From Spirochaetia bacterium (GTDB taxonomy: Bacteria; Spirochaetota; Spirochaetia; SZUA-6; Bin103): a stretch of DNA of 64,000 bases. The stretch's first letter is position 1. Every line of letters starts with the position of its first letter. The notes below the pieces were generated by a model that saw only the letters and a list, made by a program, of their open reading frames with translations, was not told where the DNA came from and did no database searches. Shown in pieces: positions 24,136 through 56,001 of this stretch. The position numbers and the translations under genes are program-made. The stretch is from NCBI GenBank assembly GCA_965203905.1, contig CBDBDQ010000005.1, positions 2,368,001-2,432,000 of the forward strand. The letters run 5' to 3'.

Positions 24136-25444
24136 GGAGTCTCGCCAAAATAAGCTGGTCTTTTAGTCACTGTCGGGGAGTCAGCATGTAGTTCCATTCG
24201 CCGTGAAACCGATCGCGCTTCAGATTCAGTGCCTGCATCTGTTCGTCGCTCACCGTCTGCCCCGTCGGGTAGCTGTTGTGGTCCAACTCCGAGCGGATCG
24301 TCAAGCCGCTCCTGGTTCTCGTGTGGCCGATCAGGTTCACCACCACCTGCCGGCTCACCAGCGGTCGCCCGCGCCAGTTCTCGGTGATGTGACAGAACAT
24401 CCGATGCTCGATCTTGTTCCACTTGCTGGTCCCCGGCGGAAAGTGACACACCGAGATGCGCAGCCCCGTGGCATCGGCGAACTGCTGCAACTCCACCTTC
24501 CACAGCCGACTGCGACTGCTGTTGGAACCGCCCCCGTCGGCCGTGATCAGCAACCGCCGCGCCTGTGGATACGCCATATGGCCCATCCTCTGCCACCACC
24601 TCCGCAGTGTCTCCACGGCGAATACCGCGGTGTCGTGATCCTCCCCCACGCTCACCCAGCCGGTGTCACCGGTCACGTCGTAGATCCCGTACGGAATCGC
24701 CTTGCCGAGCGTCTTATCCACGAAATCGTGCACCTTGACGCGCTCCGGTTGGCCCTTCGGGCGCCACTCTCGACCCCCGTTGCGGTACTCGCCCACCAAC
24801 TCCTTTTTCTTGGTGTCAACAGAAACTACCGGCTGCCGCAGAGCCTGAAACGCGCGCACCCTCCGGTTGATGTGCTTGAACTGCGCATCGCGGTCGACAT
24901 GCTGCGTGCCTTCCAGCGTCTTGCGGTTGGCCTGCAGGCTGTAGCCCAACTCATGCAACAGCCGGTTCACGGTCCGCTCGCTCACCGGGTGACCGGCCGC
25001 CTGCAGTTCCTCGGCCAGCCGCGCCGCGCTACTGCAGGTCCACAGCAACGGCCCCATCGGGTCGCCGCGGGTGACCGGGTCGACCAACCGCTCCAGCGCC
25101 TGTGTCAACTTCGGGTCGCGGGCGGTCAACGGCTTACGGCCTGCGCCGGGTCGTCGCTGGCGTCCGCTGTTGGCTTGTGCCCCTGCTGCTGCGCCGGCAT
25201 CCAGTTCCTTCAGCCCGGCGTGAATGGTGGTCCGCGAGATCCCGGTGGCGGCTGCCACACAGGCGATGCCGCCACGGCCCAGCAGGCGCGCCTCCACCGC
25301 AGCCCAGCGGCGCCGGAGGCGCTCGTCAAACAATGGATTCAGGGCTGCGAACTTGGTCTTGACCGCTTGGGTGAGAATTGGGTCCACTACGTCTGAGTAG
25401 ATTATCGGCTACTCCTTTCGACCACTTTATTTTGGCGAGATCCC
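24136..25444 (-). mobile_element. ISAzo13-family insertion sequence
   Basis: Imperfect 25-bp TIRs (GGAGTCTCGCCAAAATAAGCTGGTC vs GGGATCTCGCCAAAATAAAGTGGTC) flanked by TTA direct repeats at 24133-24135 and 25445-25447. Confidence 0.9.
24167..25387 (-). CDS. ISAzo13-family (Rhodopirellula-type) DDE transposase
   Basis: VSVDTKKKELVG, ITADGGGSN, PPGTSKWNKIEHR, FHGEWNY. Confidence 0.95.
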   Translation of the reverse strand: MDPILTQAVKTKFAALNPLFDERLRRRWAAVEARLLGRGGIACVAAATGISRTTIHAGLKELDAGAAAGAQANSGRQRRPGAGRKPLTARDPKLTQALERLVDPVTRGDPMGPLLWTCSSAARLAEELQAAGHPVSERTVNRLLHELGYSLQANRKTLEGTQHVDRDAQFKHINRRVRAFQALRQPVVSVDTKKKELVGEYRNGGREWRPKGQPERVKVHDFVDKTLGKAIPYGIYDVTGDTGWVSVGEDHDTAVFAVETLRRWWQRMGHMAYPQARRLLITADGGGSNSSRSRLWKVELQQFADATGLRISVCHFPPGTSKWNKIEHRMFCHITENWRGRPLVSRQVVVNLIGHTRTRSGLTIRSELDHNSYPTGQTVSDEQMQALNLKRDRFHGEWNYMLTPRQ

Positions 25445-25744
25445 TTACCGTCGTCAGAATGCCCGCTTCGAGCAGGACTCGGAGCAACCGATGCGCCGTT
25501 CGCGGTGGCAACCCTGCCGTCGCGGCGTCCGGATGGGGAACCGCGGCGAGCACGCCATCGTAACGCGCGACCGCGGCTGACGCAGGGCCTATCAGGGGAA
25601 TCAGCTTCGGCCAGTCCAGCCGCGCGTCCGGTGGGAAAGCGCCTCTGCGGTAGTGGACCGGCGGCATCAGGCGCCCACCACGAGATGCTGCCGACTGCTA
25701 AACGTTGTGGATGCCGGATGACCGCGGGCGCTCGTGGGAGAGCC

Positions 25745-25981
25745 TCAGCGATACCTGGCGATGAGCCGGTCGACCTTGGGCTTGTCGAAGCCGACCACGA
25801 TGGTGCCGTGGAAGTCGAGCACCGGCACCGCGGTCTGGCGCGACTTGTGCAGCATCTCGCCGGCCTTGCGCTCGTCGCGCGACACGTCGTAGTCCACGAA
25901 CTTGACGCTGCGCTGGCGCAGATAGTTCTTGAGCTGGTCGCAGAAGGTGCAAGTGGGGGTCGAGTAGATGCGAACCGCCAT
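25745..25981 (-). CDS. Glutaredoxin/NrdH-like redoxin (YruB type)
   Basis: IYSTPTCTFC, AVPV, VVGFD; lies at the end of a long shadow ORF. Confidence 0.9.
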   Translation of the reverse strand: MAVRIYSTPTCTFCDQLKNYLRQRSVKFVDYDVSRDERKAGEMLHKSRQTAVPVLDFHGTIVVGFDKPKVDRLIARYR

Positions 25982-25999
25982 TACCATCACCATTATACC

Positions 26000-27370
26000 A
26001 TGGCTGCCAGCGACAGACCCAACGTCATCGTCTTCTTCACCGACCAGCAGCGCTGGGACACCGCGGGCGTGCACGGCAACCCCGCCGGGCTCACCCCCAA
26101 CTTCGACCGCATGGCGGTCGAGGGCACCCACCTGTTCAACTCGTTCACCTGCCAGCCGGTGTGCGGCCCGGCCCGTTCCTGCCTGCAGACCGGCCGCTAC
26201 GCCACCGAGACCGGCGTGTGGCACAACGGGCCGGGGCTGCCCGACGACCTGCCCACCCTGGCCGGACTGTTCGGCGCGGCCGGCTACCGCACCGGCTACC
26301 TCGGCAAGTGGCACCTGAGCAGCGCCGGGCCCGCCGCCGTGCCGCCCGAGCAACGCGGCGGCTACCGGGACTGGCTGGCGTCCAACGTCCTGGAGTTCAC
26401 CTCCGACGCCTACCGCACCCGGATGTACGACGGCGCCGGGGACGCGGTGGACCTGCCCGGCTACCGGGTCGACGCGGTCGCCGACGCGGCCATCCGCTAC
26501 GTCGACGCGCGCTCCCGCGAGGCGGACCCCTTCCTCCTGTTCCTCTCCTTCATCGAGCCGCACTTTCAGAACAGCCGCGACGACTACCCGGCCCCGACCG
26601 GCTACGAGGAGAGTTACACCGGGACGTGGGTACCGCCCGACCTGGCCGCCCTCGGCGGCTCCACCCACCAGCACCTGGCCGGCTACTACGGCATGGTCAG
26701 GCGTCTCGACGAGGCGCTGGGACGGCTGCAGGACGCCCTGCGCAGCCTCGACCTGCTGCGCTCGACGGTGCTGCTGTACACCACCGACCACGGCTGCCAC
26801 TTCAAGACCCGCAACGGCGAGTACAAGCGTTCCTGCCACGAGAGCTCGGTGCGGCTGCCCACCGCCCTGACCGGCCCCGGCTTCGACGGCGGCGGCCGCG
26901 TGCAGCAGCTCACCAGCCTGATCGACCTGCCCCGTACCCTGCTCGACGCCGCCGGCATCACCCCGCCCGCCGAGATGCGCGGCCGTTCGGTGCTGCCGCT
27001 GCTGAGCGACCCGGCGGCGCGCACCGACTGGCCGGACGACGTGTTCATCCAGATCAGCGAGAGCCAGGTGGGACGGGCCGTGCGCACCGCGCGCTGGAAG
27101 TACGGGGTCACCGCGCCGGGGATCGGCGGCAGGCGGCAGCCGGCGGCGGACCGCTACCAGGAACAGTACCTGTACGATCTGCTGGCCGACCGCTACGAGC
27201 TGAACAACCTGGCAGGCAGTACGGCGCACGCCGAAGTGGCGCGCCGCCTGCGCCGGCGGCTGCTGCGCCACCTGCGCGCGGTGGAGGGGGCCGAACCCGC
27301 CATCGAGCCTGCCGGGGCGCGCAGCGGCGGTGGCATCCGGGTAGGGGCGGAGGAGCTGGCGGGCCTGTAG
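26000..27370 (+). CDS. Sulfatase
   Basis: PNVIVFFTDQQR, CGPAR formylglycine motif, GKWHL, TDHG. Confidence 0.93.
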   Translation: MAASDRPNVIVFFTDQQRWDTAGVHGNPAGLTPNFDRMAVEGTHLFNSFTCQPVCGPARSCLQTGRYATETGVWHNGPGLPDDLPTLAGLFGAAGYRTGYLGKWHLSSAGPAAVPPEQRGGYRDWLASNVLEFTSDAYRTRMYDGAGDAVDLPGYRVDAVADAAIRYVDARSREADPFLLFLSFIEPHFQNSRDDYPAPTGYEESYTGTWVPPDLAALGGSTHQHLAGYYGMVRRLDEALGRLQDALRSLDLLRSTVLLYTTDHGCHFKTRNGEYKRSCHESSVRLPTALTGPGFDGGGRVQQLTSLIDLPRTLLDAAGITPPAEMRGRSVLPLLSDPAARTDWPDDVFIQISESQVGRAVRTARWKYGVTAPGIGGRRQPAADRYQEQYLYDLLADRYELNNLAGSTAHAEVARRLRRRLLRHLRAVEGAEPAIEPAGARSGGGIRVGAEELAGL

Positions 27371-39929: not shown

Positions 39930-40024
39930 CCCGGCAGAGTCGCACGGCGGCTCGGGACTCGCACGGCGACTCCACGCGGCGCAGTTCGGATGACGCGGTC
40001 GACCATTCAAGAAAGGAGGTGTGC

Positions 40025-41602
40025 ATGACACACACGAGATGGCTATTGGTGCTCGCCGGCCTGCTGGTTGCCGGTCTGGCGTTCGGCGGAGCGGAGCAGG
40101 AGGGAGCCGCCGCCGAGGAGCGGCTGACGATAAGCTGGATGGGGCCGAACAACCGCGGCGTGCTGCTGCCGGCCGACAGCCCGACCGAGCTGTTCCTGGA
40201 AGAATACTTCAACGTCGAGTTGGAGCCGTGGACCGACGTGGACCTCTACCAGTCGGACCAGTGGAAGACGCGCATCGCGTCCGGCGACATTCCCGACTAC
40301 ATCAAGGCCGATGCGATCCGGTCCGGGCTGCACGACATCGGCGCGGTGCGGGTGCTGTCCGAGGACTTGCTGCGCCAGCACATGCCCAACTACACCAAGC
40401 TGGTCGACCAGATCGCCGGTCCCTACGGCTGGCAGACGGTGACCTCGGGCGGCGAGGTGGTCGGCATCCCGAGCGTCAACGTCGCCATCGCCTCGGGCGC
40501 CACCTTCGTCACCCGCCGTGACTGGTTGGAGGCGGTCGGCGAGCCGCTTCCGGAGAAGCGCATGCTCGGCTCTCCCTATTCCGACTACTCCAGCCTGGAG
40601 GACGTCGAGCGCCTGCTGCTGAAGTATCGCAACGAGGATCCTGACGGCAACGGCCAGAAGGACACCTACGGCCTGTCGGTCTACAAGAACAGCAACACCG
40701 TCAGCTTCAACGCCGGCGCCCAGTGGGCGTTCCCGAACGAGTTCGGCGCCCACGGCGTGCGTCTCGCCTCCTGGCAGGAGGTCGGCGGCGCGCTGCAGTA
40801 CTCGATGATTTCGGAGGGCTACAAGGAAGCCCTGGCGTTCCTGCACCGCTGGTACGAGGAGGAGATCATCGATCCCGAGTTCGTCACCGACAAGCGCTCG
40901 GAGCTGATCACCAAGTTCTCCAACGGCATCGTGGGCGCCTTCCAGGCATCACCGGCCTGGACCGGCCCGCGCCCGAGCGGTCCGACCGGCGTCCTGCTCA
41001 AGAACGTGCCGGACACCGAGCTGGTCTACTTCATCGCCTACGAGGGCCCCGGCGGCAAGGCCTCGGTCAACTTCAACCCGATCCTCGGCAACACCTCGAT
41101 CGGCGCCAACGCCTCCGACGCCGTGACCGAGAAGCTGCTCGCCATGCTCGACGAGATCCATACCAACATGGAGCTGTACGGGCGGGTCGCCTATGGTGAG
41201 GAGGGCGTCAACTACGAGTGGGACGAGGACGGGCTGCTGATCCAGAAGCCCGGTTTCGGCACCGGTGAGGAACGCACCAACCAGGGTTGGCAGTACTTCA
41301 CCATGTGGAACACCATCACGCCCGACATCTCGCGCTTCCGGCTGCCGCGCTGGCGCACCATTCCGCACACCATCGGCATCGACGCACCGAAGCTCGACAA
41401 CGGGTTCGCTCCCCAGTGGGACGAGGAGCTGCGCGCCGTTGCCAGCCAGCTCACCGAGGTGGAGAGCGAGTACTTCTTCCGCGCCATCATCGGCCAAGCG
41501 AACTTCACCTCCGACTGGGACGCCTACGTGGACGAGTGGACCCGCCGCGGCGGCGATGAGCTGACCAAAGAAGCCAACCGCCAGTGGCAGGACTCGATGT
41601 AA
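40025..41602 (+). CDS. Carbohydrate ABC transporter extracellular solute-binding protein
   Basis: AAAGGAGGTG RBS; signal peptide; IASGDIPD, RRDWLEAVG, EDPDGNGQKDTYG, WDAYVDEW. Confidence 0.9.
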   Translation: MTHTRWLLVLAGLLVAGLAFGGAEQEGAAAEERLTISWMGPNNRGVLLPADSPTELFLEEYFNVELEPWTDVDLYQSDQWKTRIASGDIPDYIKADAIRSGLHDIGAVRVLSEDLLRQHMPNYTKLVDQIAGPYGWQTVTSGGEVVGIPSVNVAIASGATFVTRRDWLEAVGEPLPEKRMLGSPYSDYSSLEDVERLLLKYRNEDPDGNGQKDTYGLSVYKNSNTVSFNAGAQWAFPNEFGAHGVRLASWQEVGGALQYSMISEGYKEALAFLHRWYEEEIIDPEFVTDKRSELITKFSNGIVGAFQASPAWTGPRPSGPTGVLLKNVPDTELVYFIAYEGPGGKASVNFNPILGNTSIGANASDAVTEKLLAMLDEIHTNMELYGRVAYGEEGVNYEWDEDGLLIQKPGFGTGEERTNQGWQYFTMWNTITPDISRFRLPRWRTIPHTIGIDAPKLDNGFAPQWDEELRAVASQLTEVESEYFFRAIIGQANFTSDWDAYVDEWTRRGGDELTKEANRQWQDSM

Positions 41603-43075: not shown

Positions 43076-44539
43076 GTGACGCGGATGACCGTTCCCCATG
43101 CCGGCGGCGTCAGCGGGGCCAATGCGGCGGGGACGCCCCGCACCAGGCCGCACGTGCTGATCGTGGTGCTCGACCAGTTGCGGGCGGACTCGCTCGGCTG
43201 CGCCGAGCACCCGGTGATCAGGACCCCGGCCATCGACGGCATCGCGGCCCAGGGGCTGCGGTTCACCGGCGTGCACACCGTGTCGCCGGTGTGCCAGCCG
43301 GCGCGCGTCTCCTTCGTCACCGGCCGCTACCCGCACAACCACGGCATCTGGCACAACCGCGGCGAGTTGCCGGTGAACTACCCCACTTTCTTCACCGCGC
43401 TGCGCGACGCGGGGTACACGACGGCGACGGTTGGCAAGTCGCACCTGTGGAGCCATCGGCGGGTGGCGCACCTCCGCGAGGGCGAGCCCTACCTGCGGGC
43501 GCTCGGGTTCGACACGATCGACGAGGTCGGCGGCCCGCGGGGAACCTGCGCCACCGAGTCCGGTTACTCCGACTACCTGCGCGAGAAGGGGCTGTTCGAG
43601 CTGTTCGTGTTCGACACCAAGGAGCGCGTGGCCGACCCCACCATCACGCGGGCGGCGCCGTTCGACGAGGCCGATCACATGGACGGCTACGTCGGCCGGC
43701 GCGCGGTGCAGTGTGTCGACACCTTCCCGGATGACCGCCCGACCTGTCTGTTCGTGAACTTCCCCGGTCCGCACGATCCCTGGGACGCGCCCGGCCGCTA
43801 TGCGACCAGGTACGACCCGGCCAGCTCACCGCTCCCGATCCCCGTTCCGGACCGACCGCGAACCCTGCCCGACCATGCCGCCGCGAAGCTCGACTTCCAG
43901 CCGGACTCGGGGCTGACCCCCGAGGTGATCGCCGCGATTCGCGCCAACTATGGCGGCAAGGTGAGCTTCGTCGACGACTGGTGCCGGCGCATCTTCGACG
44001 CCTACGCGGCCCGCGGCTGGCTCGACGACCTGCTGGTGATCATTACCTCCGACCATGGCGAGATGGCCGGCGATCACGGCCGGGTATACAAGCGCACCTT
44101 TCACGAATCGGCGTTGCGGGTGCCGCTCATCCTGCGCTGGCCCGGGCGGATCCCCGGCGGAACTCGCGACGCGCTGGTCGAGAACATCGACATCCTGCCG
44201 ACGCTGCTGGAGGCGATCGGCGTGCCGCAGCCGCCCATGTCCCTCGGCCGGTCGTTGCTGCCGGTGGTCGCCAACCTGCAGGCGCAGCACCGCTCCGACC
44301 TGTTGAGCGAGATCTACTACGGCGGCTCGCGCAACGTGATGCTCAAGACCGCGCGCCACAAGTACGTCATCGACCAGGAGGGCCGCGGCTACATGCTGTA
44401 CGACCTCGACCGGGACCCGGACGAGCAGTACAACCTGGTCGGCGCGCCGGAGGCGCGAGCACTCGAGCAGGCCATGCGTGACGCGCTGCTCGTGCGGCTG
44501 GCCGCGTCGGCGTACGTCATCGACAGCGTCAACCTGTAG
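43076..44539 (+). CDS. Sulfatase
   Basis: LDQLRAD, CQPAR, GKSHL, PGPHDP, SDHGEM. Confidence 0.92.
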   Translation: MTRMTVPHAGGVSGANAAGTPRTRPHVLIVVLDQLRADSLGCAEHPVIRTPAIDGIAAQGLRFTGVHTVSPVCQPARVSFVTGRYPHNHGIWHNRGELPVNYPTFFTALRDAGYTTATVGKSHLWSHRRVAHLREGEPYLRALGFDTIDEVGGPRGTCATESGYSDYLREKGLFELFVFDTKERVADPTITRAAPFDEADHMDGYVGRRAVQCVDTFPDDRPTCLFVNFPGPHDPWDAPGRYATRYDPASSPLPIPVPDRPRTLPDHAAAKLDFQPDSGLTPEVIAAIRANYGGKVSFVDDWCRRIFDAYAARGWLDDLLVIITSDHGEMAGDHGRVYKRTFHESALRVPLILRWPGRIPGGTRDALVENIDILPTLLEAIGVPQPPMSLGRSLLPVVANLQAQHRSDLLSEIYYGGSRNVMLKTARHKYVIDQEGRGYMLYDLDRDPDEQYNLVGAPEARALEQAMRDALLVRLAASAYVIDSVNL

Positions 44540-48734: not shown

Positions 48735-50417
48735 ATGACGCGGGCCGGCCATCTGCGGCGGCTGCAGGAGGAACGCTTCGACCTGCTGGTGATCGGCGGC
48801 GGGGCGACCGGCTGCGGCAGCGCCCTCGACGCCGCCACCCGTGGACTGCGCGTGGCGCTGGTGGAGCGCGGCGACTTCGCCGGCGGCACCAGCAGCCGCA
48901 GCACCAAGCTGGTGCACGGCGGGGTGCGCTACCTGGAGCAGGCGGTCAGGCGCATCGACCGGTCTCAGTTCCGGCTGGTGCGGGAGGCGCTGCGGGAGCG
49001 TGCGGCGCTGCTGGAGCTGGCCCCGCACCTGGTGCACGAGCTGGCGATCTTCGTGCCCCTCTACCAGTTGCGCCAGCAACCCTACTACCGCATCGGCCTC
49101 AACCTGTACGACCGCCTGGCGGGCCGCTACGCGCTGCGCCGTTCCGAGTTCGTGCCGCGCGAGCAGGCGCACGAGCGGTTCCCCTACCTGCGCGAGCAGG
49201 TACGTGGCCAGGGACCGCCACGCCACCTGCGCGGCGGAGTGATTTACTACGACGCCCAGTTCGACGACGCGCGCATGAACCTGGCGCTGGCCCTGACCGC
49301 GGCCCATCACGGCGCGGCGCTGGCCAACTACGTGGCCGTCGAGGGACTGGTGAAGGACGCCGCCGGCCGGCTCACGGGCGCCATTGTGCGCGACCGCCTC
49401 GACGGTGCCGAGTGGGAGCTGCGGGCGCGGGTGGTGCTGAACGCGGCCGGGCCCTACGTGGACGAGCTGCGCCGCCTGGACGATCCCGGCGGCACCCCGC
49501 TGCTGCGCGTCAGCGCGGGGTCCCACCTGGTGCTTGGAGAGCGCTTTCCCGCCCCCGACACCGGCTTCCTGATTCCCCGTACGGAGGACGGCCGGGTGAT
49601 TTTCGTGCTGCCCTGGCACGGGCAGCTCCTGGCGGGCACCACGGAGGTGGACGCGCAGGTGACCGACGAGCCGCTGCCGGCGCGGCAGGAGGTGAGCTAC
49701 CTGCTGACGCACCTGCGCAACTACCTGAACCTGCCGGCGGGGCCCGGCGACGTGATGGCGGCATGGTCGGGGCTGCGCCCGCTGATCGCCGCCCCACCAC
49801 GGCGCGTGGCCGGCGGCCGCCGTCAGCGCCGGGACACCGCGGCACTGACCCGCGACCACTTCCTGAGCACCAGCCGCAGCGGGCTGATCACCGTCGCCGG
49901 CGGCAAATGGACGACTTACCGGGTGATGGCCGTGCACGCCGTGAACCGCGTCGTGGAGGCGGGCGGCCTGGCGCCGCGGCGCACGTCGCAGACCCGCAGC
50001 ACGCCGTTGCTCGGCGCGGTCGGCTACCGCCCGGACGCCGCCGGCCTGCAGCGCCGGTACCACCTGGCCGCCGACGTCGCCGGTCACCTCGACCGGGCAT
50101 TCGGCGACCGCGCCCACCTGGTGGCGCAGCTGGCGGGCGCCGGGTTCGGCTCCCGGCTGGCGCCGCGCCATCCCTACCTGGAGGCCGAGGTGGTGTACGC
50201 GGCGCGCCACGAGGCGGCCTGCACCGTGGACGACGTGCTGGCTCGGCGCACCCGGCTGGCGTTCGTCGACAACGTGGCGGCCCTGGCCAGCGTGCCGCGG
50301 GTGGCGCAGCTGCTGGCCGCGGAGCTGGGTTGGAGCGCCGCCGAGCGCCGGCGTCACGCGGACGCCGCCAGGGCCCGCCTGGAGACTGCACAGGCGATCG
50401 TCGACGGCGTCGAGTAG
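48735..50417 (+). CDS. glpD: FAD-dependent glycerol-3-phosphate dehydrogenase
   Basis: IGGGATG, GTSSRSTKLVHGGVRYLE, GGKWTTYR, RRTRL. Confidence 0.95.
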   Translation: MTRAGHLRRLQEERFDLLVIGGGATGCGSALDAATRGLRVALVERGDFAGGTSSRSTKLVHGGVRYLEQAVRRIDRSQFRLVREALRERAALLELAPHLVHELAIFVPLYQLRQQPYYRIGLNLYDRLAGRYALRRSEFVPREQAHERFPYLREQVRGQGPPRHLRGGVIYYDAQFDDARMNLALALTAAHHGAALANYVAVEGLVKDAAGRLTGAIVRDRLDGAEWELRARVVLNAAGPYVDELRRLDDPGGTPLLRVSAGSHLVLGERFPAPDTGFLIPRTEDGRVIFVLPWHGQLLAGTTEVDAQVTDEPLPARQEVSYLLTHLRNYLNLPAGPGDVMAAWSGLRPLIAAPPRRVAGGRRQRRDTAALTRDHFLSTSRSGLITVAGGKWTTYRVMAVHAVNRVVEAGGLAPRRTSQTRSTPLLGAVGYRPDAAGLQRRYHLAADVAGHLDRAFGDRAHLVAQLAGAGFGSRLAPRHPYLEAEVVYAARHEAACTVDDVLARRTRLAFVDNVAALASVPRVAQLLAAELGWSAAERRRHADAARARLETAQAIVDGVE

Positions 50418-50455
50418 TGCCTTTCGCTGCGCCAATACGCGTAATCGGCAATACT

Positions 50456-51859
50456 TCAGTACCGTATATCGACAAACATAGCCATTCGTCCCGGACAGGG
50501 ATACCCGTATTTGTCTTTGTGAGGATTCAGACGGGTAGTGCGCTTCTTACGCCTGAAGCGTTTGCCACAATAAGTACACTCATAGATGTGATGTGGGCCG
50601 CTTCCTGATCGCGCTGCGCGTGTTCGGCGGCGCTGCCGCGTCGGTGCTGCCGCTCGAGCCGCGGCGGGCGGAACTGCGATCGGGTTCCGCGGACTCAACT
50701 CCACGACGTAACGCGGGACAAAGCTCCGTCCAGTAATCTTTGCGCCTTCAATACGGTCAATGCGGTAGCTCCGGTGCTCTCCATCAGAGTTTCGGATTGC
50801 GTGCAGGACGATATTTCCATCGCGGGTGCGTCGTAGAGAATACGGTTCAATCCGTCGAACTGAGCTCTGGTAGCGTAAGTCGACGCACACATGGTTGGCG
50901 GCCGCAAAGCGAATGATCTCCAGGAATGACCGTGCGGCCGTGGCCACCGGCAGCCGTAGTGTACGCTCTCTTAGGACGGTTTCTCCCGCCGCTATCTCGT
51001 AGACTTCCGGTTCGCTAGGGGCAACGCCAGTGTGCAGCCATGCAAAGAAATCAGGGAGCTCGTTCCAGAACGATTCGACCGGCAGTAGAGCCTGAAGCTG
51101 ATGACCCAGCATGGATCCCAAGAACCTTCAAGATCGCCTTTACGTCTCTCTAGTTCCGTAAGCGTTGGAATAAGGATGTCGCGATGCCTACACTTTTGGT
51201 GTAGTACATCGTGCAGTACAGCGGGCTGCGGGCGTGCCTCGGTATTCCGATAGAGATTGACCACATCGTAGAGATCGCGCGGCCGTGCACGGTCACCCAA
51301 TGCGCGGACCTTTGGCCGAAGGCTTCCTCATAGGCGTAGCAACGGACTCTGATGCCCTCTTCGGGCGCATCGCTGTAGTCGTGAAAGATGACTCGTTGCA
51401 GCGGTGGGAGTACAAGAATTTCGTCAGCCGTAAGATCCAGTTTGATACGCGGGAGACCACCTGACCGCGGAGCGATCGGCCCTTGATAGCTGAGTTGCCC
51501 TGACAGGAGAACGTGCCACGCGTGTTTTCGAAGATTTCGAAGTCCTGCAAGTCTGCCGGAATCTCGATGCCAGTATGATCGTATATCCATTCTCCGATTT
51601 CGCGGAATACGGGACGAAGGAACTCCTGATCGACGTGGGAAGGTTCGGTGAGTGTAAAATCAAGATCTTCGGAGAACCGATAGGTTTCAAAATAGCATTT
51701 CTTGAGACATGTCCCGCCCTTGAAGATCCAGGTATCAGTAAGTGCGGGATGCTGATGGATGCCGGCAAGAACCCAGCCAAGTACATAGTCCTTTTCGATG
51801 ATCTGAGGGCGTAACCCAAGCGTATTCGCTGCACTGAGGATTTCGCCGCGGCCAATCAT
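50456..51859 (-). pseudogene. AbiEii nucleotidyltransferase toxin fused to WYL domain and Zn finger; three frameshifts
   Basis: IEKDY, FKGGT, RFSEDLDF / IKLD / KVRAL, RPRDLYD / RRIEPYSL, RSYRIDRI (WYL), CTYC...H...C; frame breaks near 51497, 51315 and 51117. Confidence 0.85.
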
Positions 51860-51870
51860 CGAGAAGCCAC

Positions 51871-52656
51871 CTACGTCCAGCTCTCAGGTACCAGAAGGCG
51901 CCAACGGGAAACAAGACGACCGCAGGTGAGCGCTCGATCAAGCTTGGCGTTACCTTGGGTCAGATGCGCCCGGCACGCCTGGACAAGTCTAGCAGTGTTT
52001 GCTCTCCGTTCTGCCAGGAATCCCAGACGCTTGAATACGGCGCCATTGCCGAGCATCCCTGCATAATCTATTAGCTTGGCATCATCTCTGTCGTTGCGGC
52101 TGAAGTAGCTCACAACGCAGTCAGATACGTGCTGGATACCGGCTCCGACTTCCGGATCGTCGAGCATGTCGATGATGGTACGGTGAACGTCGGAAATCGC
52201 GATTCGAGTTCTTCCACGCCAGACGTTCTTGGTGCCGAAGATATTGGTCTCTTGAACGTGTTTCAGCGTGAAGTGTGCTCCGTGGCGTAGCAGCCTCTTC
52301 GCACGAACGGCCCGCGCCGTCATTACGACGATGTCACGAAAGATCTGGTCCGTCAGGCTCCAGTGTTCCGCTGCAGCGCGTCCGCCGATGTAGGCAGGTC
52401 CGAAGAGAACCGGCACCAGCACCCAGGGGTCATCGAGAACCAATTCGCTGGCCAGCGAATCAAGGCCGACGGGCGCGTAGCAGCCCGGTCCAACGCGTCG
52501 CAGCCAGCCCTGCCGAAACCACCGGGAGAGTAGCTTCGATGCGTCGGAACGGCTCACGTCCAGTGCTCGTTCGGCATCATCGATTTGGATGATATCGCCG
52601 GCTGCCCGAACAACGGCAGCCAGTCTAAGGCGACCCTTCGGTATGGGGGGGCTCAT
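51871..52656 (-). CDS. AbiEi-family type IV antitoxin / transcriptional regulator
   Basis: N-terminal wHTH LSRWFRQGWLRRVGPGCY; YIGGRAAAEHWSLTDQ, ISDVHRTIIDML, KRLGFL. Confidence 0.85.
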   Translation of the reverse strand: MSPPIPKGRLRLAAVVRAAGDIIQIDDAERALDVSRSDASKLLSRWFRQGWLRRVGPGCYAPVGLDSLASELVLDDPWVLVPVLFGPAYIGGRAAAEHWSLTDQIFRDIVVMTARAVRAKRLLRHGAHFTLKHVQETNIFGTKNVWRGRTRIAISDVHRTIIDMLDDPEVGAGIQHVSDCVVSYFSRNDRDDAKLIDYAGMLGNGAVFKRLGFLAERRANTARLVQACRAHLTQGNAKLDRALTCGRLVSRWRLLVPESWT

Positions 52657-52754
52657 GATTCAGTATCGGGACTCCAATAATTCGCTGTTTTCAGGAAGTT
52701 TAGCAAGCATAATATACACTATCGAGACCTCGTAAGGTACTTAAGTAAAGCATT

Positions 52755-52775
52755 AATTCGCATTTTTTGCGAATT
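52755..52775. promoter_or_regulatory. Inverted repeat upstream of abiEi (candidate operator)
   Basis: AATTCGCA-N5-TGCGAATT perfect 8-bp arms in AT-rich leader. Confidence 0.5.
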
Positions 52776-52894
52776 CGAGCAGCGAAGATATCTAATCTCG
52801 AAGACGAACCGAGGTGCCGCCGGAGACGCGCGGGTTCAGACTTGGGTCATCGTCACCGGGACTGGAGCGGAGATCGCTCCGCTGGTTGTTTGGG

Positions 52895-54283
52895 CTATAC
52901 GACCGCGGATGGCAGAGTGCGCTCGATCTCGTCGATGCGGTAGCCGAAGCCGCTCCCGGTCACGGACTTCAGGTCGACGTGTCCGTCACGCCGGCGGTAG
53001 AGGCCGGGATGGACCCGCGCTTCGGCGGCTGAGGCGGCCGGGTAGAACTGCATGGCGTTGGTCTCCACGCCCATGATGGTGCCGGCGTGTGCCGCCAGTT
53101 GCAGGTGCGGGACCTGCGCCAGCATCGGATTGGTCAGGTCCTGCACCATCAGGGTCATGCCGTGGTGGCGCGCCCAGCACAGGCTGAGGATGGCGCCGGT
53201 CTGCGTCTTGCAGGTCTTCAGGGCCACCCCGCTCCAACCGAGCGAGCGGCCGAGGCGTACCAGCGTCCAGTCGTGGGCGCTCTCATCCATGAACAACGGC
53301 TTGCGTGCCGCCACCGAGCGCACGTCGATCTGATGCTGCTCCAGGTCGTAGGGGAACGGCTGCTCGACGTAGAGGATCGCGGCGTAGGTGCGCGGCTCGT
53401 GGTCGCGCAGTCGGTCCAGTATCCGGTTCACGTACTCGGGCTCGGTCACCGTACAGTTGAAGTCGGCGGACAGCCACAGCACCGGATGCCGTGCCGCGAT
53501 GGCACCTACCGCCGCCAGGCGCCGGTAGTCCCACTCGGCGTCGTCGCCGCGCAGCTTCACCTTGAGCGCCTGCAGTCCGTCGCTGCGGATCCAGTCCTCC
53601 AGCAACACCGGGTAGCCGTCGTCCGGCTCGTCCCCGGTGAGCTCGTCCGGCGAGAGGGGGTCGAGGCCCCCGACCAGGTGCCATGCCATCAGCCGGCGGC
53701 GCGGCGGCACCAGGTAGTCGCGGGGGTAGCGGCCGGCAAAGGCGGGGTCGCCCAGGAGCGCGGCCAGGTCGCTGCCCAGGTGCTCGGGGCCGTAGGTGTC
53801 GTAGGTGGGACAATCCAGCAGCTTGCCGTAGGCGTCATGGGTAGCCAGATCGAACGCCGAGGCACATACCAGGGCGGCGAGCCAGGGGATCGCGGCGGCG
53901 CCCGGCCGGGTGCGGTTGGCCGCCGCCAGCAGCTCCGGCAGGCGCCGCTCGACGAAGCGCTGGCCGATCTCCAGCGGATGACCCGGCTCCGCCGCATCCG
54001 GCCAGGCCCGCGCGATCGCCTCGCTGAGACCGCACAGCGCCTGCAGCCGTTCTGCGTAAGGGATGCCGCTCGGCCAGACCCATTGCACGCTCAGCGGCGT
54101 CTCGCCCCAGCCCACGACGGTTTCGGACCCGTCTCCGGCGCGGCTCAACTCGACGCTGGCGCGCGCGCAGATGACCGACGTGGTGACCTCCGGACCGAAC
54201 TTCAGCGGCACGCGGGTGGTGACCGGCAGATAGTACAGGTGGGTGGCACCTACCGCCGCGCTGCACGAATGGTGAGTGGGCAT
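52895..54283 (-). CDS. Mandelate racemase/muconate lactonizing (enolase superfamily) protein
   Basis: LKVKL, SADFN, YVEQP, MDES, ALKTCK. Confidence 0.88.
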   Translation of the reverse strand: MPTHHSCSAAVGATHLYYLPVTTRVPLKFGPEVTTSVICARASVELSRAGDGSETVVGWGETPLSVQWVWPSGIPYAERLQALCGLSEAIARAWPDAAEPGHPLEIGQRFVERRLPELLAAANRTRPGAAAIPWLAALVCASAFDLATHDAYGKLLDCPTYDTYGPEHLGSDLAALLGDPAFAGRYPRDYLVPPRRRLMAWHLVGGLDPLSPDELTGDEPDDGYPVLLEDWIRSDGLQALKVKLRGDDAEWDYRRLAAVGAIAARHPVLWLSADFNCTVTEPEYVNRILDRLRDHEPRTYAAILYVEQPFPYDLEQHQIDVRSVAARKPLFMDESAHDWTLVRLGRSLGWSGVALKTCKTQTGAILSLCWARHHGMTLMVQDLTNPMLAQVPHLQLAAHAGTIMGVETNAMQFYPAASAAEARVHPGLYRRRDGHVDLKSVTGSGFGYRIDEIERTLPSAVV

Positions 54284-54397
54284 CGCGCTCGGAGTATAGG
54301 GGGCCAACGGCCGGCGGACAACGAGCGGCCGGCGCGGCGAAGCCGGTGGGCGGTACCCCGGCGGCACTCCCGGCACCGGGCAGTGCACCCGCGGGCG

Positions 54398-54528
54398 AAA
54401 AAAAGGCCCCTGGGTAAAGGAGGTGAAACCCCAGGGGCCAATGGATGGTAGTCGGCGTAGCTTGCGGGTGTGCTCAGTTCCCTCAAGCTTTGCAAGCCAA
54501 ACGCTTGCAGACAGGAGGTTTCACCGAC
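54398..54528 (-). ncRNA. Putative sRNA A (about 130 nt): multibranch 5' domain + terminator with anti-SD loop
   Basis: GUCGGUG/CGCCGAC basal stem, UGCAAGC/GCUUGCA and AGCUUG..CAAGCU hairpins, then 10-bp GGCCCCUGGG stem, loop GUUUCACCUCCUUUA, U7. Confidence 0.6.
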
Positions 54529-54535
54529 GTTATAA

Positions 54536-54563
54536 TCGTCGGCTTCCGGCACTCACAGCTTTA
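54536..54563 (-). promoter_or_regulatory. Sigma28 (FliA/WhiG)-like promoter of sRNA A
   Basis: TAAA-N16-GCCGACGA on minus strand, 7 nt before the predicted 5' stem. Confidence 0.5.
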
Positions 54564-54632
54564 ATCATTTTCGAAGAAATCGGAATTTTTTTGACTCCTG
54601 TCGAGCGAGATTCCTGTCGAGAGCGCGGGCAT

Positions 54633-54740
54633 AAAAAAAGGCCCCTGGGTAAAGGAGGTAAAACCCCAGGGGCCAGTGGATGGCCATCAGAACATCTGGG
54701 GGTAAAATCACACGCGCGTGTTCGGAATCCCCCAGTGTCT
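54633..54740 (-). ncRNA. Putative sRNA B (about 108 nt) with the same 3' module
   Basis: 5' stem CUGGGGG/CCCCCAG; 3' 51 nt are 49/51 identical to sRNA A, loop GUUUUACCUCCUUUA, U7. Confidence 0.6.
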
Positions 54741-54745
54741 ATAAG

Positions 54746-54775
54746 TAACAACAACAGTCGAGTTGGAAGGTTACA
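54746..54775 (-). promoter_or_regulatory. ECF-sigma-like promoter of sRNA B
   Basis: TGTAAC followed 16-19 nt later by TGTT(A) on minus strand. Confidence 0.35.
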
Positions 54776-54809
54776 TGGGGTACCAAAAAAATGTGAAAGG
54801 AGACCACGC

Positions 54810-55466
54810 CTACCGCGCCGCACGGTAGCGCTCCAGATGGCGCCGCACCGCGCTGCGCTGCTCGGCGGCCACCGAGGCCAGTTCCACCACTTCCTCGATC
54901 GTGATCAGTGCGGCGGTGGCAAACCCGAACTCCGCCTGCAGCTCGGCCAGGGCGCTGGCCGACCCGCTGCCGCGCTCCATGCGATCGACCGCAATCAGCA
55001 GGCCGACGATCCGCGCCGCCGATCGGCTGCGCAGCAGCTCCACCGCTTCCCGCTTGGCGCCGCCATCGGTAACTACGTCGTCTACAATCAATACGCGGTC
55101 GTCGGCTTCCGGTTCCCGCCCCACCAGGGTCCCCGCCTCGCCGTGGGTCTTGGCCTCCTTGCGGTTGAAGGTGTAGCTCAGCGGGCGTCCCAGCATCCGC
55201 GAGGCGCTGATGGCGGTCGCGACGGCCAGCGGGATCGCCTTGTACGCGGGACCGAACAGGCAGCTCGGCGGGGCGCCGGCAAAGTGCTCGGCGATGGCGC
55301 CCGCGTACAGGTCCGCCAGTTGGGCGATCTGCTCCCCGTGATGGATCGCCCCCAGATTGACGAAGTAGGGCGAGGAACGCCCGCTCTTGGTGGTGAACCG
55401 GCCGAAACGCACGGCGCCGGTGTCCACCAGCAACTGCGCGAGGCGTTGCTTGTCGGGGGTGGTCAT
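54810..55466 (-). CDS. pyrE: Orotate phosphoribosyltransferase
   Basis: FTTKSGRSSPYF, LFGPAYKAIP, FNRKEAKTHGE, PRPP motif VLIVDDVVTDGG. Confidence 0.95.
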   Translation of the reverse strand: MTTPDKQRLAQLLVDTGAVRFGRFTTKSGRSSPYFVNLGAIHHGEQIAQLADLYAGAIAEHFAGAPPSCLFGPAYKAIPLAVATAISASRMLGRPLSYTFNRKEAKTHGEAGTLVGREPEADDRVLIVDDVVTDGGAKREAVELLRSRSAARIVGLLIAVDRMERGSGSASALAELQAEFGFATAALITIEEVVELASVAAEQRSAVRRHLERYRAAR

Positions 55467-55515
55467 GGCCCCCGCAGTGTAGCGGATCGCGCGCCGGTTC
55501 GGGTACGTTGCCCCC

Positions 55516-56001
55516 ATGGCACGCAAGCGGATCTACCTGGCGAGCCCGTACGGATTCTCGAAGCAGCAGAAGGCGTTGCTGCTGCCGCCCATAGTGGCGC
55601 GGCTGGAGGCGCTGGGCGCCGAGGTGTGGGAGCCGTTCGCGCGCAACAACTGGGACATTCCGCGCCCGGGATGGGCCTACCGCGTCGCTCAACGCGACCT
55701 CGGCGACGTGCTCACCTGTGACGCCATCTTCGCGGTCGTGAACGGCACGCCGCCGGATGAAGGCGTGATGGTGGAGCTGGGCGTGGCCATTGCGCGGCGG
55801 ATTCCCACGTTCCTGTTCCGTGACGACCTGCGCCGCTGCACCGACAGCGAACACTATCCGCTCAACCTGATGCTGTTCGCGGGGCTGCCAGAGCAGGGTT
55901 GGAAGGACTACTACTACACCGACCTGGACCATCTGGCACGGTCCGACAAGGCCCTGGCTCCCTGGCTGGCGGCCGGGGACACGGGCGCGGCTGCGGATTG
56001 A
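55516..56001 (+). CDS. Nucleoside 2-deoxyribosyltransferase family protein
   Basis: IYLASPYGF, PPDEGVMVELGVA, NLML. Confidence 0.88.
   Translation: MARKRIYLASPYGFSKQQKALLLPPIVARLEALGAEVWEPFARNNWDIPRPGWAYRVAQRDLGDVLTCDAIFAVVNGTPPDEGVMVELGVAIARRIPTFLFRDDLRRCTDSEHYPLNLMLFAGLPEQGWKDYYYTDLDHLARSDKALAPWLAAGDTGAAAD

Follow-up and report, generated by a model that had tools for sequence, protein, structure and literature searches.

The 64,000-nucleotide (nt) stretch of Spirochaetia bacterium contig CBDBDQ010000005.1 considered here (the window) contains a gap of ~526 base pairs (bp; 54284-54809), with ~50% GC in surroundings of ~70%, between two minus-strand genes, one of the enolase superfamily (MR_MLE_C) and one for a pyrE-like phosphoribosyltransferase. 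A first-pass annotation of this DNA had proposed that an AT-richer gap of ~520 bp at this place holds two sibling small RNA (sRNA) units with 51-nt repeats, each displaying an anti-Shine-Dalgarno (anti-SD) sequence on its terminator. The gap is as described, and a repeat search finds a single 51-nt direct-repeat family (54398-54448 and 54633-54683; 96% identity, 49/51). Along the minus strand, with the start of pyrE set by alignment with its orthologues, the order is pyrE, unit B, unit A, and the enolase-family gene. Homology between the copies is confined to the 51 nt and there are no terminal repeats; a tRNA/tmRNA scan gave 0 genes, and a plasmid BLAST of the gap sequence gave no match.

On the minus strand each copy reads as claimed: CCAUCCA-(U/C)-U, GGCCCCUGGG, the loop GUUU(C/U)ACCUCCUUUA, CCCAGGGGCC, and U7. 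The perfect 10-nt inverted repeat GGCCCCTGGG/CCCAGGGGCC, with arms 15 nt apart, forms a stem of nine G-C pairs and one U-A pair in both copies, and the 15-nt loop has (C/U)ACCUCCUUU as its core in both. The 35-nt stem-loop pattern has two occurrences in the window (<=3 mismatches) against 0.00 expected from 100 shuffles. Each copy qualifies as an intrinsic terminator, a 10-bp GC-rich stem followed by U7 on the minus strand, and a terminator scan flags both hairpins, via an inner sub-stem. RNAfold leaves the 15-nt loop unpaired in RNAs A and B and gives each a stable 5' domain; A folds at -57.8 kcal/mol (z = -4.9 relative to dinucleotide shuffles) and B at -46.0 kcal/mol (z = -4.5) (Table 1).

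Table 1. Features of the two sRNA units, their promoter-like boxes, and a candidate target, in window coordinates
Feature	Position	Strand	Basis or remark
Promoter-like box of sRNA B: TGTAAC, 17-nt spacer, GTTGT	54775-54770 and 54752-54748	minus	
sRNA B, ~110 nt	54633..54742	minus	RNAfold fold; 5' end predicted
sRNA B, 5' hairpin	54739-54691	minus	RNAfold
sRNA B, single-stranded linker with CCAUCCA	54683-54677	minus	RNAfold
sRNA B, terminator stem arms	54674-54665 and 54649-54640	minus	RNAfold
sRNA B, terminator loop GUUUUACCUCCUUUA	54664-54650	minus	RNAfold
sRNA B, U7	54639-54633	minus	sequence
Unit A, conserved block TAAAGC upstream	54563-54558	minus	alignment A3
Unit A, palindrome CCGACG-N7-CGTCGG upstream	54541-54523	minus	alignment A3
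Unit A, degenerate box: TGAAAC, 15-nt spacer, GTTTG	54523-54518 and 54502-54498	minus	
Unit A, upstream region	54493..54563	minus	promoter/operator DNA or 5' part of a longer RNA A
sRNA A, minimal version, ~95 nt	54398..54492	minus	RNAfold fold
sRNA A, 5' hairpin	54489-54459	minus	RNAfold
sRNA A, CCAUCCA	54448-54442	minus	sequence
sRNA A, terminator stem arms	54439-54430 and 54414-54405	minus	RNAfold
sRNA A, terminator loop GUUUCACCUCCUUUA	54429-54415	minus	RNAfold
sRNA A, U7	54404-54398	minus	sequence
Sigma-70-like promoter TTGTCC-17-TATACT of the enolase-superfamily gene	54293..54321	minus	promoter scan
Candidate target site: ribosome-binding site AAAGGAGGTG and ATG 40025	40012..40027	plus	complementarity to loop A

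The proposed identity of the loop core with the anti-SD at the 3' end of 16S rRNA agrees with the published tail, given as GAUCACCUCCUUUCU in the cited part of PMC3025663; the organism's own 16S lies outside the window. Loop A has 11 contiguous nt (UCACCUCCUUU) in common with this tail and loop B has 9 (ACCUCCUUU). The sequence AAAGGAGGT occurs three times in the window, as the complements of the two loops and at 40012, against 0.08 expected.

Species-representative genomes were scanned with a degenerate pattern made up of the loop and the top three stem pairs (18 specified bases, two free), which gave at least 109 loci against ~17 chance matches by our own estimate (18 bases, 1.2e12 positions). 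Among the matches listed, to which all counts of members below refer, 88 of the 109 loci have spirochaete titles; the titled genera and groups are Sphaerochaeta, Pleomorphochaeta, Salinispira, Sediminispirochaeta, Spirochaetales, Spirochaetia, and Spirochaetota. A stem of at least 7 bp and a U-rich tail on the anti-SD strand are found for 90 of the 112 matches in these loci, or 92 of 114 when the window's two copies are included; one (L037) passed via a neighbouring helix in the 48-nt folds used, and most of the 22 failures are matches from other phyla that have no hairpin. Some members have a loop of 14 nt rather than 15. The family had not been recognised in the first-pass annotation, and Rfam 15 likewise has no match at gathering in the whole window or in 12 loci. 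In E-value mode the window yields only weak matches to mmgR/suhB (RF00519), one of 17.1 bits (E = 0.74) and one of 14.8 bits (E = 2.8), with gathering at 41, a membership we rejected: the scores are below gathering and the likeness is limited to the CCUCC stretch and the U-tail.

Upstream sequence sorts the members into types. Sphaerochaeta types, often found between pfk and a convergent pgi, have an invariant CAGAAAGAGAACGACAUGC, a small covarying 5' hairpin, a single-stranded AUCGGAUUUUUUCUAACCUCCUUUUGUU that contains a second, invariant anti-SD (AACCUCCUUUU), and the terminator. High-GC genomes (locus GC 0.65-0.73) have three paralogue types. Type A comprises the window copy at 54398 and its orthologues in L079, L083, and L086; type B, the copy at 54633 and orthologues in L079, L083, L086, L051, L056, and L090, which retain the 5' hairpin with a variable apex; and type C, L002, L020, L033, L042, L060, and L100, convergent with sucD in 5/5 loci examined. 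The module model R1 scores copy A at 64.2 bits and copy B at 67.1. The notion of two sibling units with a conserved 3' module and differing 5' domains is borne out by orthologues in the same order in three high-GC spirochaete genomes (L079, L083, and L086), where the B-then-A tandem is repeated with ~190-235 nt spacing, and type B directly follows a pyrE-like gene in all 4 loci with enough flank (window, L051, L056, and L079). By sequence comparison, the two units belong to a family across free-living Spirochaetota, of which Sphaerochaeta-type genomes show one copy and the high-GC clade that includes the window's genome at least three paralogue types.

Several matches at the margins of this distribution may be recorded separately. 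In four Anaerolineae/Chloroflexi contigs (L037, L043, L075 at ~1990-2040, and L092 at ~290-330), the same GGGUUUNACCUCCUUUNCCC caps a longer hairpin in two tiers, CCUUCGCCAUG...CAUGGCGAAGG, with a conserved CCCUCCUUCUGGGG ahead of it and a U-run behind; an anti-SD terminator-loop RNA of independent or very distant origin may exist here outside spirochaetes. The high-GC spirochaete locus L048 (1940-2060) has a TGTAAC-N17-GTTTC box and an identical stem-loop, then UCACCUCCUUUUAGCC, a second anti-SD, and no U-tract; on the opposite strand, TTCTTTTGTG comes after the hairpin. The contig L015, titled as a Leucobacter metagenome-assembled genome (MAG), has an sRNA region with no difference from that of spirochaete contig L035, at a locus GC of 0.46, and is probably mis-binned rather than actinobacterial. 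Two MAG contigs titled Rickettsiales (L076, 1966-2043; L006, 1994-2027) have the same loop on stems of their own, the former with a U8 tail and 47.8 bits with the model, the latter with no U tail; these could be chance, contamination, or wider distribution.

The stems of the family covary. The MAFFT alignment A1 misregisters the stems of 14-nt-loop members, and pair counts were therefore taken from the model-fitted alignment A2 (96 hits, 83 distinct rows), which leans towards structure and in which the scan pattern fixes the loop and the top three stem pairs. With that bias, both sides change in 8 of the 10 stem pairs and 89.3% of cells are paired, against 76.7% in shuffled alignments; the observed covariation score was reached by 0 of 500 shuffles, and sliding the partner by 1-3 columns lowered every measure. 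Stems differ between clades yet stay complementary.

The 3' module is strongly conserved when set beside its surroundings. Between the window and L079, L056, and L051, identities are 85/73/76% for the pyrE protein, 86/74/76% for pyrE DNA, and 75/62/64% for the 5' domain of B, whereas the 51-nt 3' module is identical at 49/51, 50/51, and 50/51 positions, or at 31-32 of 33 when the 18 pattern-fixed positions are left out; L079 is, by its pyrE protein, the nearest relative among those compared. A and B are each orthologous across species, and their duplication is therefore old. A near-identical module between old paralogues is, as far as sequence can tell, the signature of selection, or of gene conversion plus selection. 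We conclude that the units are very probably real, selected RNA genes.

Two copies within 235 bp might also suggest an element of the REP/MITE type (repetitive extragenic palindrome or miniature inverted-repeat transposable element), the possibility against which the first-pass annotation had asked to be checked. Even at E up to 10, model R1 detects no more than these 2 copies in the 64 kb, no two of the 109 loci share a contig, with one locus for each 4-7 Mb chromosome among the matches listed, each type keeps its genomic neighbours across species, and the copies share 51 nt only; the repeats are not REP/MITE elements. Alternatively, the plus strand could be the functional one, with an SD loop serving a small open reading frame (ORF) or a CsrA-type GGA loop: read that way the hairpin has a perfect SD with ATG/GTG just past the stem, and a frame is open from 54423 to 55721. 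That frame has no Pfam family and, on our reading of alignment A3, is broken in L079; two plus-strand promoter-like sites fall in non-conserved columns; and in nearly all members an A-run, which has no known role there, precedes the hairpin on the SD strand and forms a U-tail on the other. Sphaerochaeta types have, again on our reading, no start codon at a usable distance after the second SD-like stretch. Repeat element and plus-strand function together seem to us extremely improbable. The plus-strand frame 54423-54812 was a rejected candidate, having no Pfam family and promoter-like sites that are not conserved.

A promoter-like box lies 34 nt after the pyrE stop, ahead of unit B. Its strict form, TGTAAC-N17-GTT, occurs once in the 64-kb window (54775-54750, minus strand) against 0.03 expected. 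The corresponding box upstream of the high-GC types and many other non-Sphaerochaeta members is TGTAAC(C/T)TT, with 17-18 nt from TGTAAC to GTT(T/C). Of the 114 members, 32 have a match to TG[TA][AT]AC-N17-18-GT[TC] at a distance of 60-150 nt upstream; these make up 32 of the 39 RNA-strand occurrences in 376 kb of loci (~0.009 expected per 91-nt window). ECF16-type promoters, recognised by sigma factors of the extracytoplasmic function (ECF) class, are described in the cited passages of two papers (PMC3420878, PMC8315932) as having a -35 tGTAACc, a spacer of 16-17 nt, and a -10 CGAA, with transcription at one of them starting 6 bp past the -10 box. The B box agrees in its -35 TGTAACC and 17-nt spacer, as do the boxes of the 32 members in -35 and spacer, but not in its -10, and we infer that it is ECF-like. 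From its position, RNA B would start at ~54742 and be ~110 nt long, close to the 108 nt proposed at first; the ~130 nt proposed for RNA A is one of two possibilities considered below. Sphaerochaeta-type members have a sigma-70-like TTGATT-N17-TAnnnT instead, by our reading.

Position and promoter bear directly on the most mundane account of the locus, in which the hairpins are ordinary intrinsic terminators, B being the pyrE terminator or 3' untranslated region (3'UTR) and A a duplicated remnant with no trans function. Stable terminator hairpins are common, the B hairpin is the first terminator past the pyrE stop, and the post-pyrE position recurs in 4/4 loci with flanks. Yet a plain terminator requires no set loop or stem, and here the module is 96-98% conserved against 74-86% for adjoining coding DNA, the loop recurs unchanged on stems that differ and covary, next to genes as unrelated as pfk-pgi, sucD, and topA, and C-type and Sphaerochaeta-type members are free-standing, with conserved 5' domains. 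The conserved promoter-like box between pyrE and B is a further difficulty for this account, which we regard as unlikely. Judged as a 3'UTR-derived sRNA, B fits in position and shared terminator, and its promoter-like box contradicts the expectation that such an RNA has no promoter of its own.

Unit A is less tidy than unit B. Its box is a perfect TGTAAC-N17-GTTTG in L079 and L083 (alignment A3), and conservation reaches farther upstream, to the TAAAGC block and to a palindrome, CCGAYG/CRUCGG, in which one pair shows a compensatory change. A helix predicted by RNAalifold, GUCGGUG (54528-54522) with CGCCGAC (54457-54451; CRCCGRC across relatives), spans the box and is maintained in 4/4 unit A sequences through G-U/A-U changes; if this helix is real, the region 54493-54563 would be inside RNA A. 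The length predicted for RNA A is thus ambiguous, ~95 nt (start ~54492) or at least ~130 nt. A further hairpin in unit A, GCAAGC/GCUUGC, was rejected as RNA structure, being out of register in L083 and L086 (alignment A3).

The first-pass annotation had also seen a second AACCUCCU in domain A. It is present (minus strand, 54520-54513), but none of the 3 orthologues has it and it runs into the -35-like box; for these reasons it is not a conserved seed. CCAUCC(A) stands just 5' of the terminator in 10 of 11 A- and B-type copies (the B copy of L079 has CCAUCA) and not in C-type; MAFFT places CCAUCCA against the single-stranded AACCUCCUUUU of the Sphaerochaeta types, and on this alignment it may be a diverged second seed. 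In the spacer between B and A, tandem 13-mers GACTCCTGTCGAG and GATTCCTGTCGAG, 16 nt apart at 54593-54621, sit within an insertion of ~40-60 nt that is absent from L079, L083, and L086; either a regulator site or slippage could account for them.

With pyrE, B, A, and the enolase-family gene on one strand, unit A might be a cis leader or attenuator of the last of these, or A and B might both be processed from pyrE-B-A read-through. The conservation of unit A upstream of its box (TAAAGC and palindrome) and the predicted long-range helix across that box would suit such an arrangement. Against it, unit A ends before the independent promoter-like site of the enolase-superfamily gene, whose ATG (54283) follows the -10 hexamer by 9 nt and has no SD to act on; from this sequence the mRNA looks leaderless. 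In L051 and L056, two loci with unit B only, the opposite strand carries the longest ORF among those examined downstream, and the U7 terminators speak against efficient read-through. We consider a leader or read-through product very improbable. In both flanking genes, the only ones inspected for this, the ATG comes 9 nt after the end of a -10-like hexamer (TATACT, 54283-54293; TACACT, 55464-55481; minus strand) and lacks an SD, and both look leaderless.

Transcription of the units, the sigma factor, SD pairing, and targets are what we infer beyond these observations. The account we favour, and hold to be probable, is that the gap holds two paralogous genes for trans-acting sRNAs, in minus-strand order pyrE, B, A, that occlude Shine-Dalgarno (SD) sites. 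From 5' to 3', each RNA would have a hairpin domain that differs between types, a short unpaired CCAUCCA, and an intrinsic terminator whose 15-nt loop presents the anti-SD copy (11 nt in A, 9 nt in B). An ECF-sigma-type promoter would drive copy B and most non-Sphaerochaeta members, and stress-induced expression would therefore be implied. The exposed loop would then kiss the SD region of mRNAs with strong, extended SDs, occluding 30S binding and lowering translation; one candidate is the transporter-associated gene at 40025, with its AAAGGAGGUG. A 15-nt loop left open at the end of a stable stem, as in all the folds made, suits a kissing interaction with SD regions, and for loop-SD pairing as such our confidence is a little better than moderate.

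The ribosome-binding site (RBS) at this candidate, AAAGGAGGTG (40012-40021), lies 3 nt ahead of the ATG at 40025. It had been put forward as a perfect 10-nt complement of loop A, serving an ATP-binding cassette (ABC) binding-protein gene. The match is true, with a duplex of -17.8 kcal/mol for loop A and -15.9 for loop B against a window background of -6.3 (sd 3.0); any strong SD would match, however, and the energy, though among the window's best, is not unique. As for the gene, it encodes 525 amino acids with a signal-peptide-like N-terminus and follows two ABC permease genes, a context on which the label depends; Pfam at 1e-5 names no family for the protein. From its sequence the 40012 RBS is a candidate target only. 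Of the first-pass proposals, the core one stands up well; the second seed, the size given for RNA A, this particular target, and the idea that such RNAs could throttle SD-led as against leaderless mRNAs are so far not borne out.

A number of points weigh against the proposed mechanism. The invariance of the loop is partly built in, with 18 loop and stem-top bases fixed by the scan and members with diverged loops undetectable by it, and the 64-kb window does not include this organism's 16S gene. Several coding-region sites in the window equal or beat the duplex energy at 40012; a perfect anti-SD pairs with every strong SD and confers no target specificity. The -10 half of the promoter-like box, GTTT (GTT(T/C/G) across members), differs from the CGAA of ECF16, and the box of copy A is degenerate in the window (TGAAAC, spacer 15) and further decayed in L086. 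The terminator scan finds no terminator from the pyrE stop to the B hairpin, which must therefore also end pyrE transcripts, and RNA B could come partly or wholly from pyrE mRNA or its 3'UTR. The 5' ends of RNAs A and B are predictions from models.

The same lack of target specificity in a perfect anti-SD makes room for a decoy of the 16S 3' tail, which would titrate a protein or act globally on ribosomes (by way of a tail-binding factor or a nuclease). Loop A does match 11 contiguous nt of the canonical tail, and in the high-GC clade the whole stem-loop is invariant in A, B, and C copies, as would suit a protein-binding site. On the other side, no candidate partner is encoded alongside in any context examined; Sphaerochaeta stems vary freely while the loop stays, which fits RNA-RNA pairing; and the analogues LhrC and cuckoo/CcsR are described as SD-pairing or anti-SD-like. 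A decoy is, in our estimation, improbable. A related and decidedly unlikely possibility is a phylum-wide mimic of the 16S tail acting as a general competitor rather than as a gene-specific regulator. When the ECF sigma fires, abundant anti-SD loops would coat or compete for strong SDs or a tail-binding factor, and translation would shift from SD-led to leaderless or SD-less mRNAs, which seem common here. If so, the family would bear on the bacterial balance of SD-led and leaderless translation, and the Anaerolineae loop terminators would suggest that the device either evolved convergently or is very old.

Anti-SD sRNAs, sibling copies, terminator-loop seeds, and alternative-sigma promoters are all already known, and by analogy of architecture the present family appears closest to LhrC1-5 of Listeria monocytogenes (RF00616), likewise multicopy, partly tandem sibling sRNAs. 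In LhrC, CUCCC...UUUU is present in an unpaired stretch and in two loops, one of them that of the terminator; in the cited portion of the same work, the terminator loop binds the lapB SD region, as judged by compensatory mutation, and cell-envelope stress induces LhrC (PMC4132741). The two differ in motif (CUCCC in LhrC, a full 16S-tail copy, ACCUCCUUU, here), in host, and in control, LhrC being a Firmicutes system under the two-component system LisRK and this family one of Spirochaetota with an ECF-like or sigma-70-like promoter. Unlike LhrC, the window copies have the motif in the terminator loop only. Among sub-threshold Rfam matches of the Sphaerochaeta form, LhrC ranks first (L012; 31.8 bits, E = 0.0024); membership was rejected, with gathering at 110 bits and LhrC absent from the window list at E up to 10.

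The cuckoo/CcsR RNAs of Alphaproteobacteria resemble the family as modular, often tandem sRNAs with an anti-SD-like loop, as far as the cited parts of the literature describe them (PMC4615179, PMC3927594, PMC8034643). For CcsR1-4 (RSs0680a-d), the cited section reports that only the CCUCCUCCC loop motif is kept, on covarying stems (PMC4615179). Whereas cuckoo RNAs carry CCUCCUCCC on 2-4 adjacent hairpins, here GUUUNACCUCCUUUN is on the terminator hairpin, or on it plus one single-stranded copy. Membership in cuckoo/CcsR was also tried and rejected: loops are GUUU(C/U)ACCUCCUUUA, on the terminator hairpin only, there is no Rfam match at gathering, and the phyla differ.

MicA, RybB, and MicL of enterobacteria are sRNA genes under sigma-E/ECF promoters. 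In these systems the sRNA gene is directly under an alternative sigma promoter, as proposed here, with the difference that sigma-E/ECF sRNAs use 5' seeds and this family would use a terminator loop. AbcR1/AbcR2 of Rhizobiales and Brucella repress mRNAs of ABC-transporter binding proteins via anti-SD-like loops; in the window only one candidate is ABC-associated, and it is a predicted target. FoxJ of Fusobacterium is another sRNA under an ECF-type sigma, according to the cited part of PMC11005410. AbcR1/2 and OmrA/OmrB (the latter as presented in the cited part of PMC12692685) are, like the window units, tandem paralogues with shared modules, but have no sequence or Rfam relationship to them. 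A role of sRNA terminator loops in pairing is reported for E. coli in the portion of PMC11979758 cited here.

Full-text searches of the open literature, which took in neither subscription papers nor supplements, found no account of Sphaerochaeta sRNAs or of spirochaete anti-SD sRNAs, and a search for the loop motif with sRNA gave nothing relevant. To our knowledge, almost nothing is known of riboregulation in free-living spirochaetes. Base-pairing sRNAs are seldom conserved past genus or family, and the present family appears to be new and unusually widespread for one of them. It is findable by covariance model in at least about 90 species-level genomes, with no entry in Rfam 15, and would be the phylum's first broadly conserved candidate regulator. 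If the modelled pairing holds, the family would offer a clean case of a terminator loop as seed, and it would tie an sRNA to an ECF-type promoter outside Proteobacteria.

Other features of the window lie farther from the gap. On its minus strand, a lower-GC island at 50400-52900 (GC 0.46-0.65) encodes a WYL-domain protein (50456-51121) and a protein resembling the AbiEi antitoxin (51871-52656), and its DNA matches AbiEii/AbiEi pairs on Rhizobium and Thiodictyon plasmids at 64-66% identity; a plasmid BLAST of the 8-kb neighbourhood returned AbiE toxin-antitoxin genes and short pieces only. By these matches, the island beside the sRNA locus was probably gained by horizontal transfer as a defence or toxin-antitoxin module. 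An ISAZ013-type DDE transposase (E = 4.5e-146) is encoded at 24167-25387 (minus strand). Two sulfatase genes (25505-27370 and 43076-44539, both plus strand) fit a polysaccharide-degrading, free-living spirochaete, and in L012 a sulfatase gene also adjoins the sRNA.

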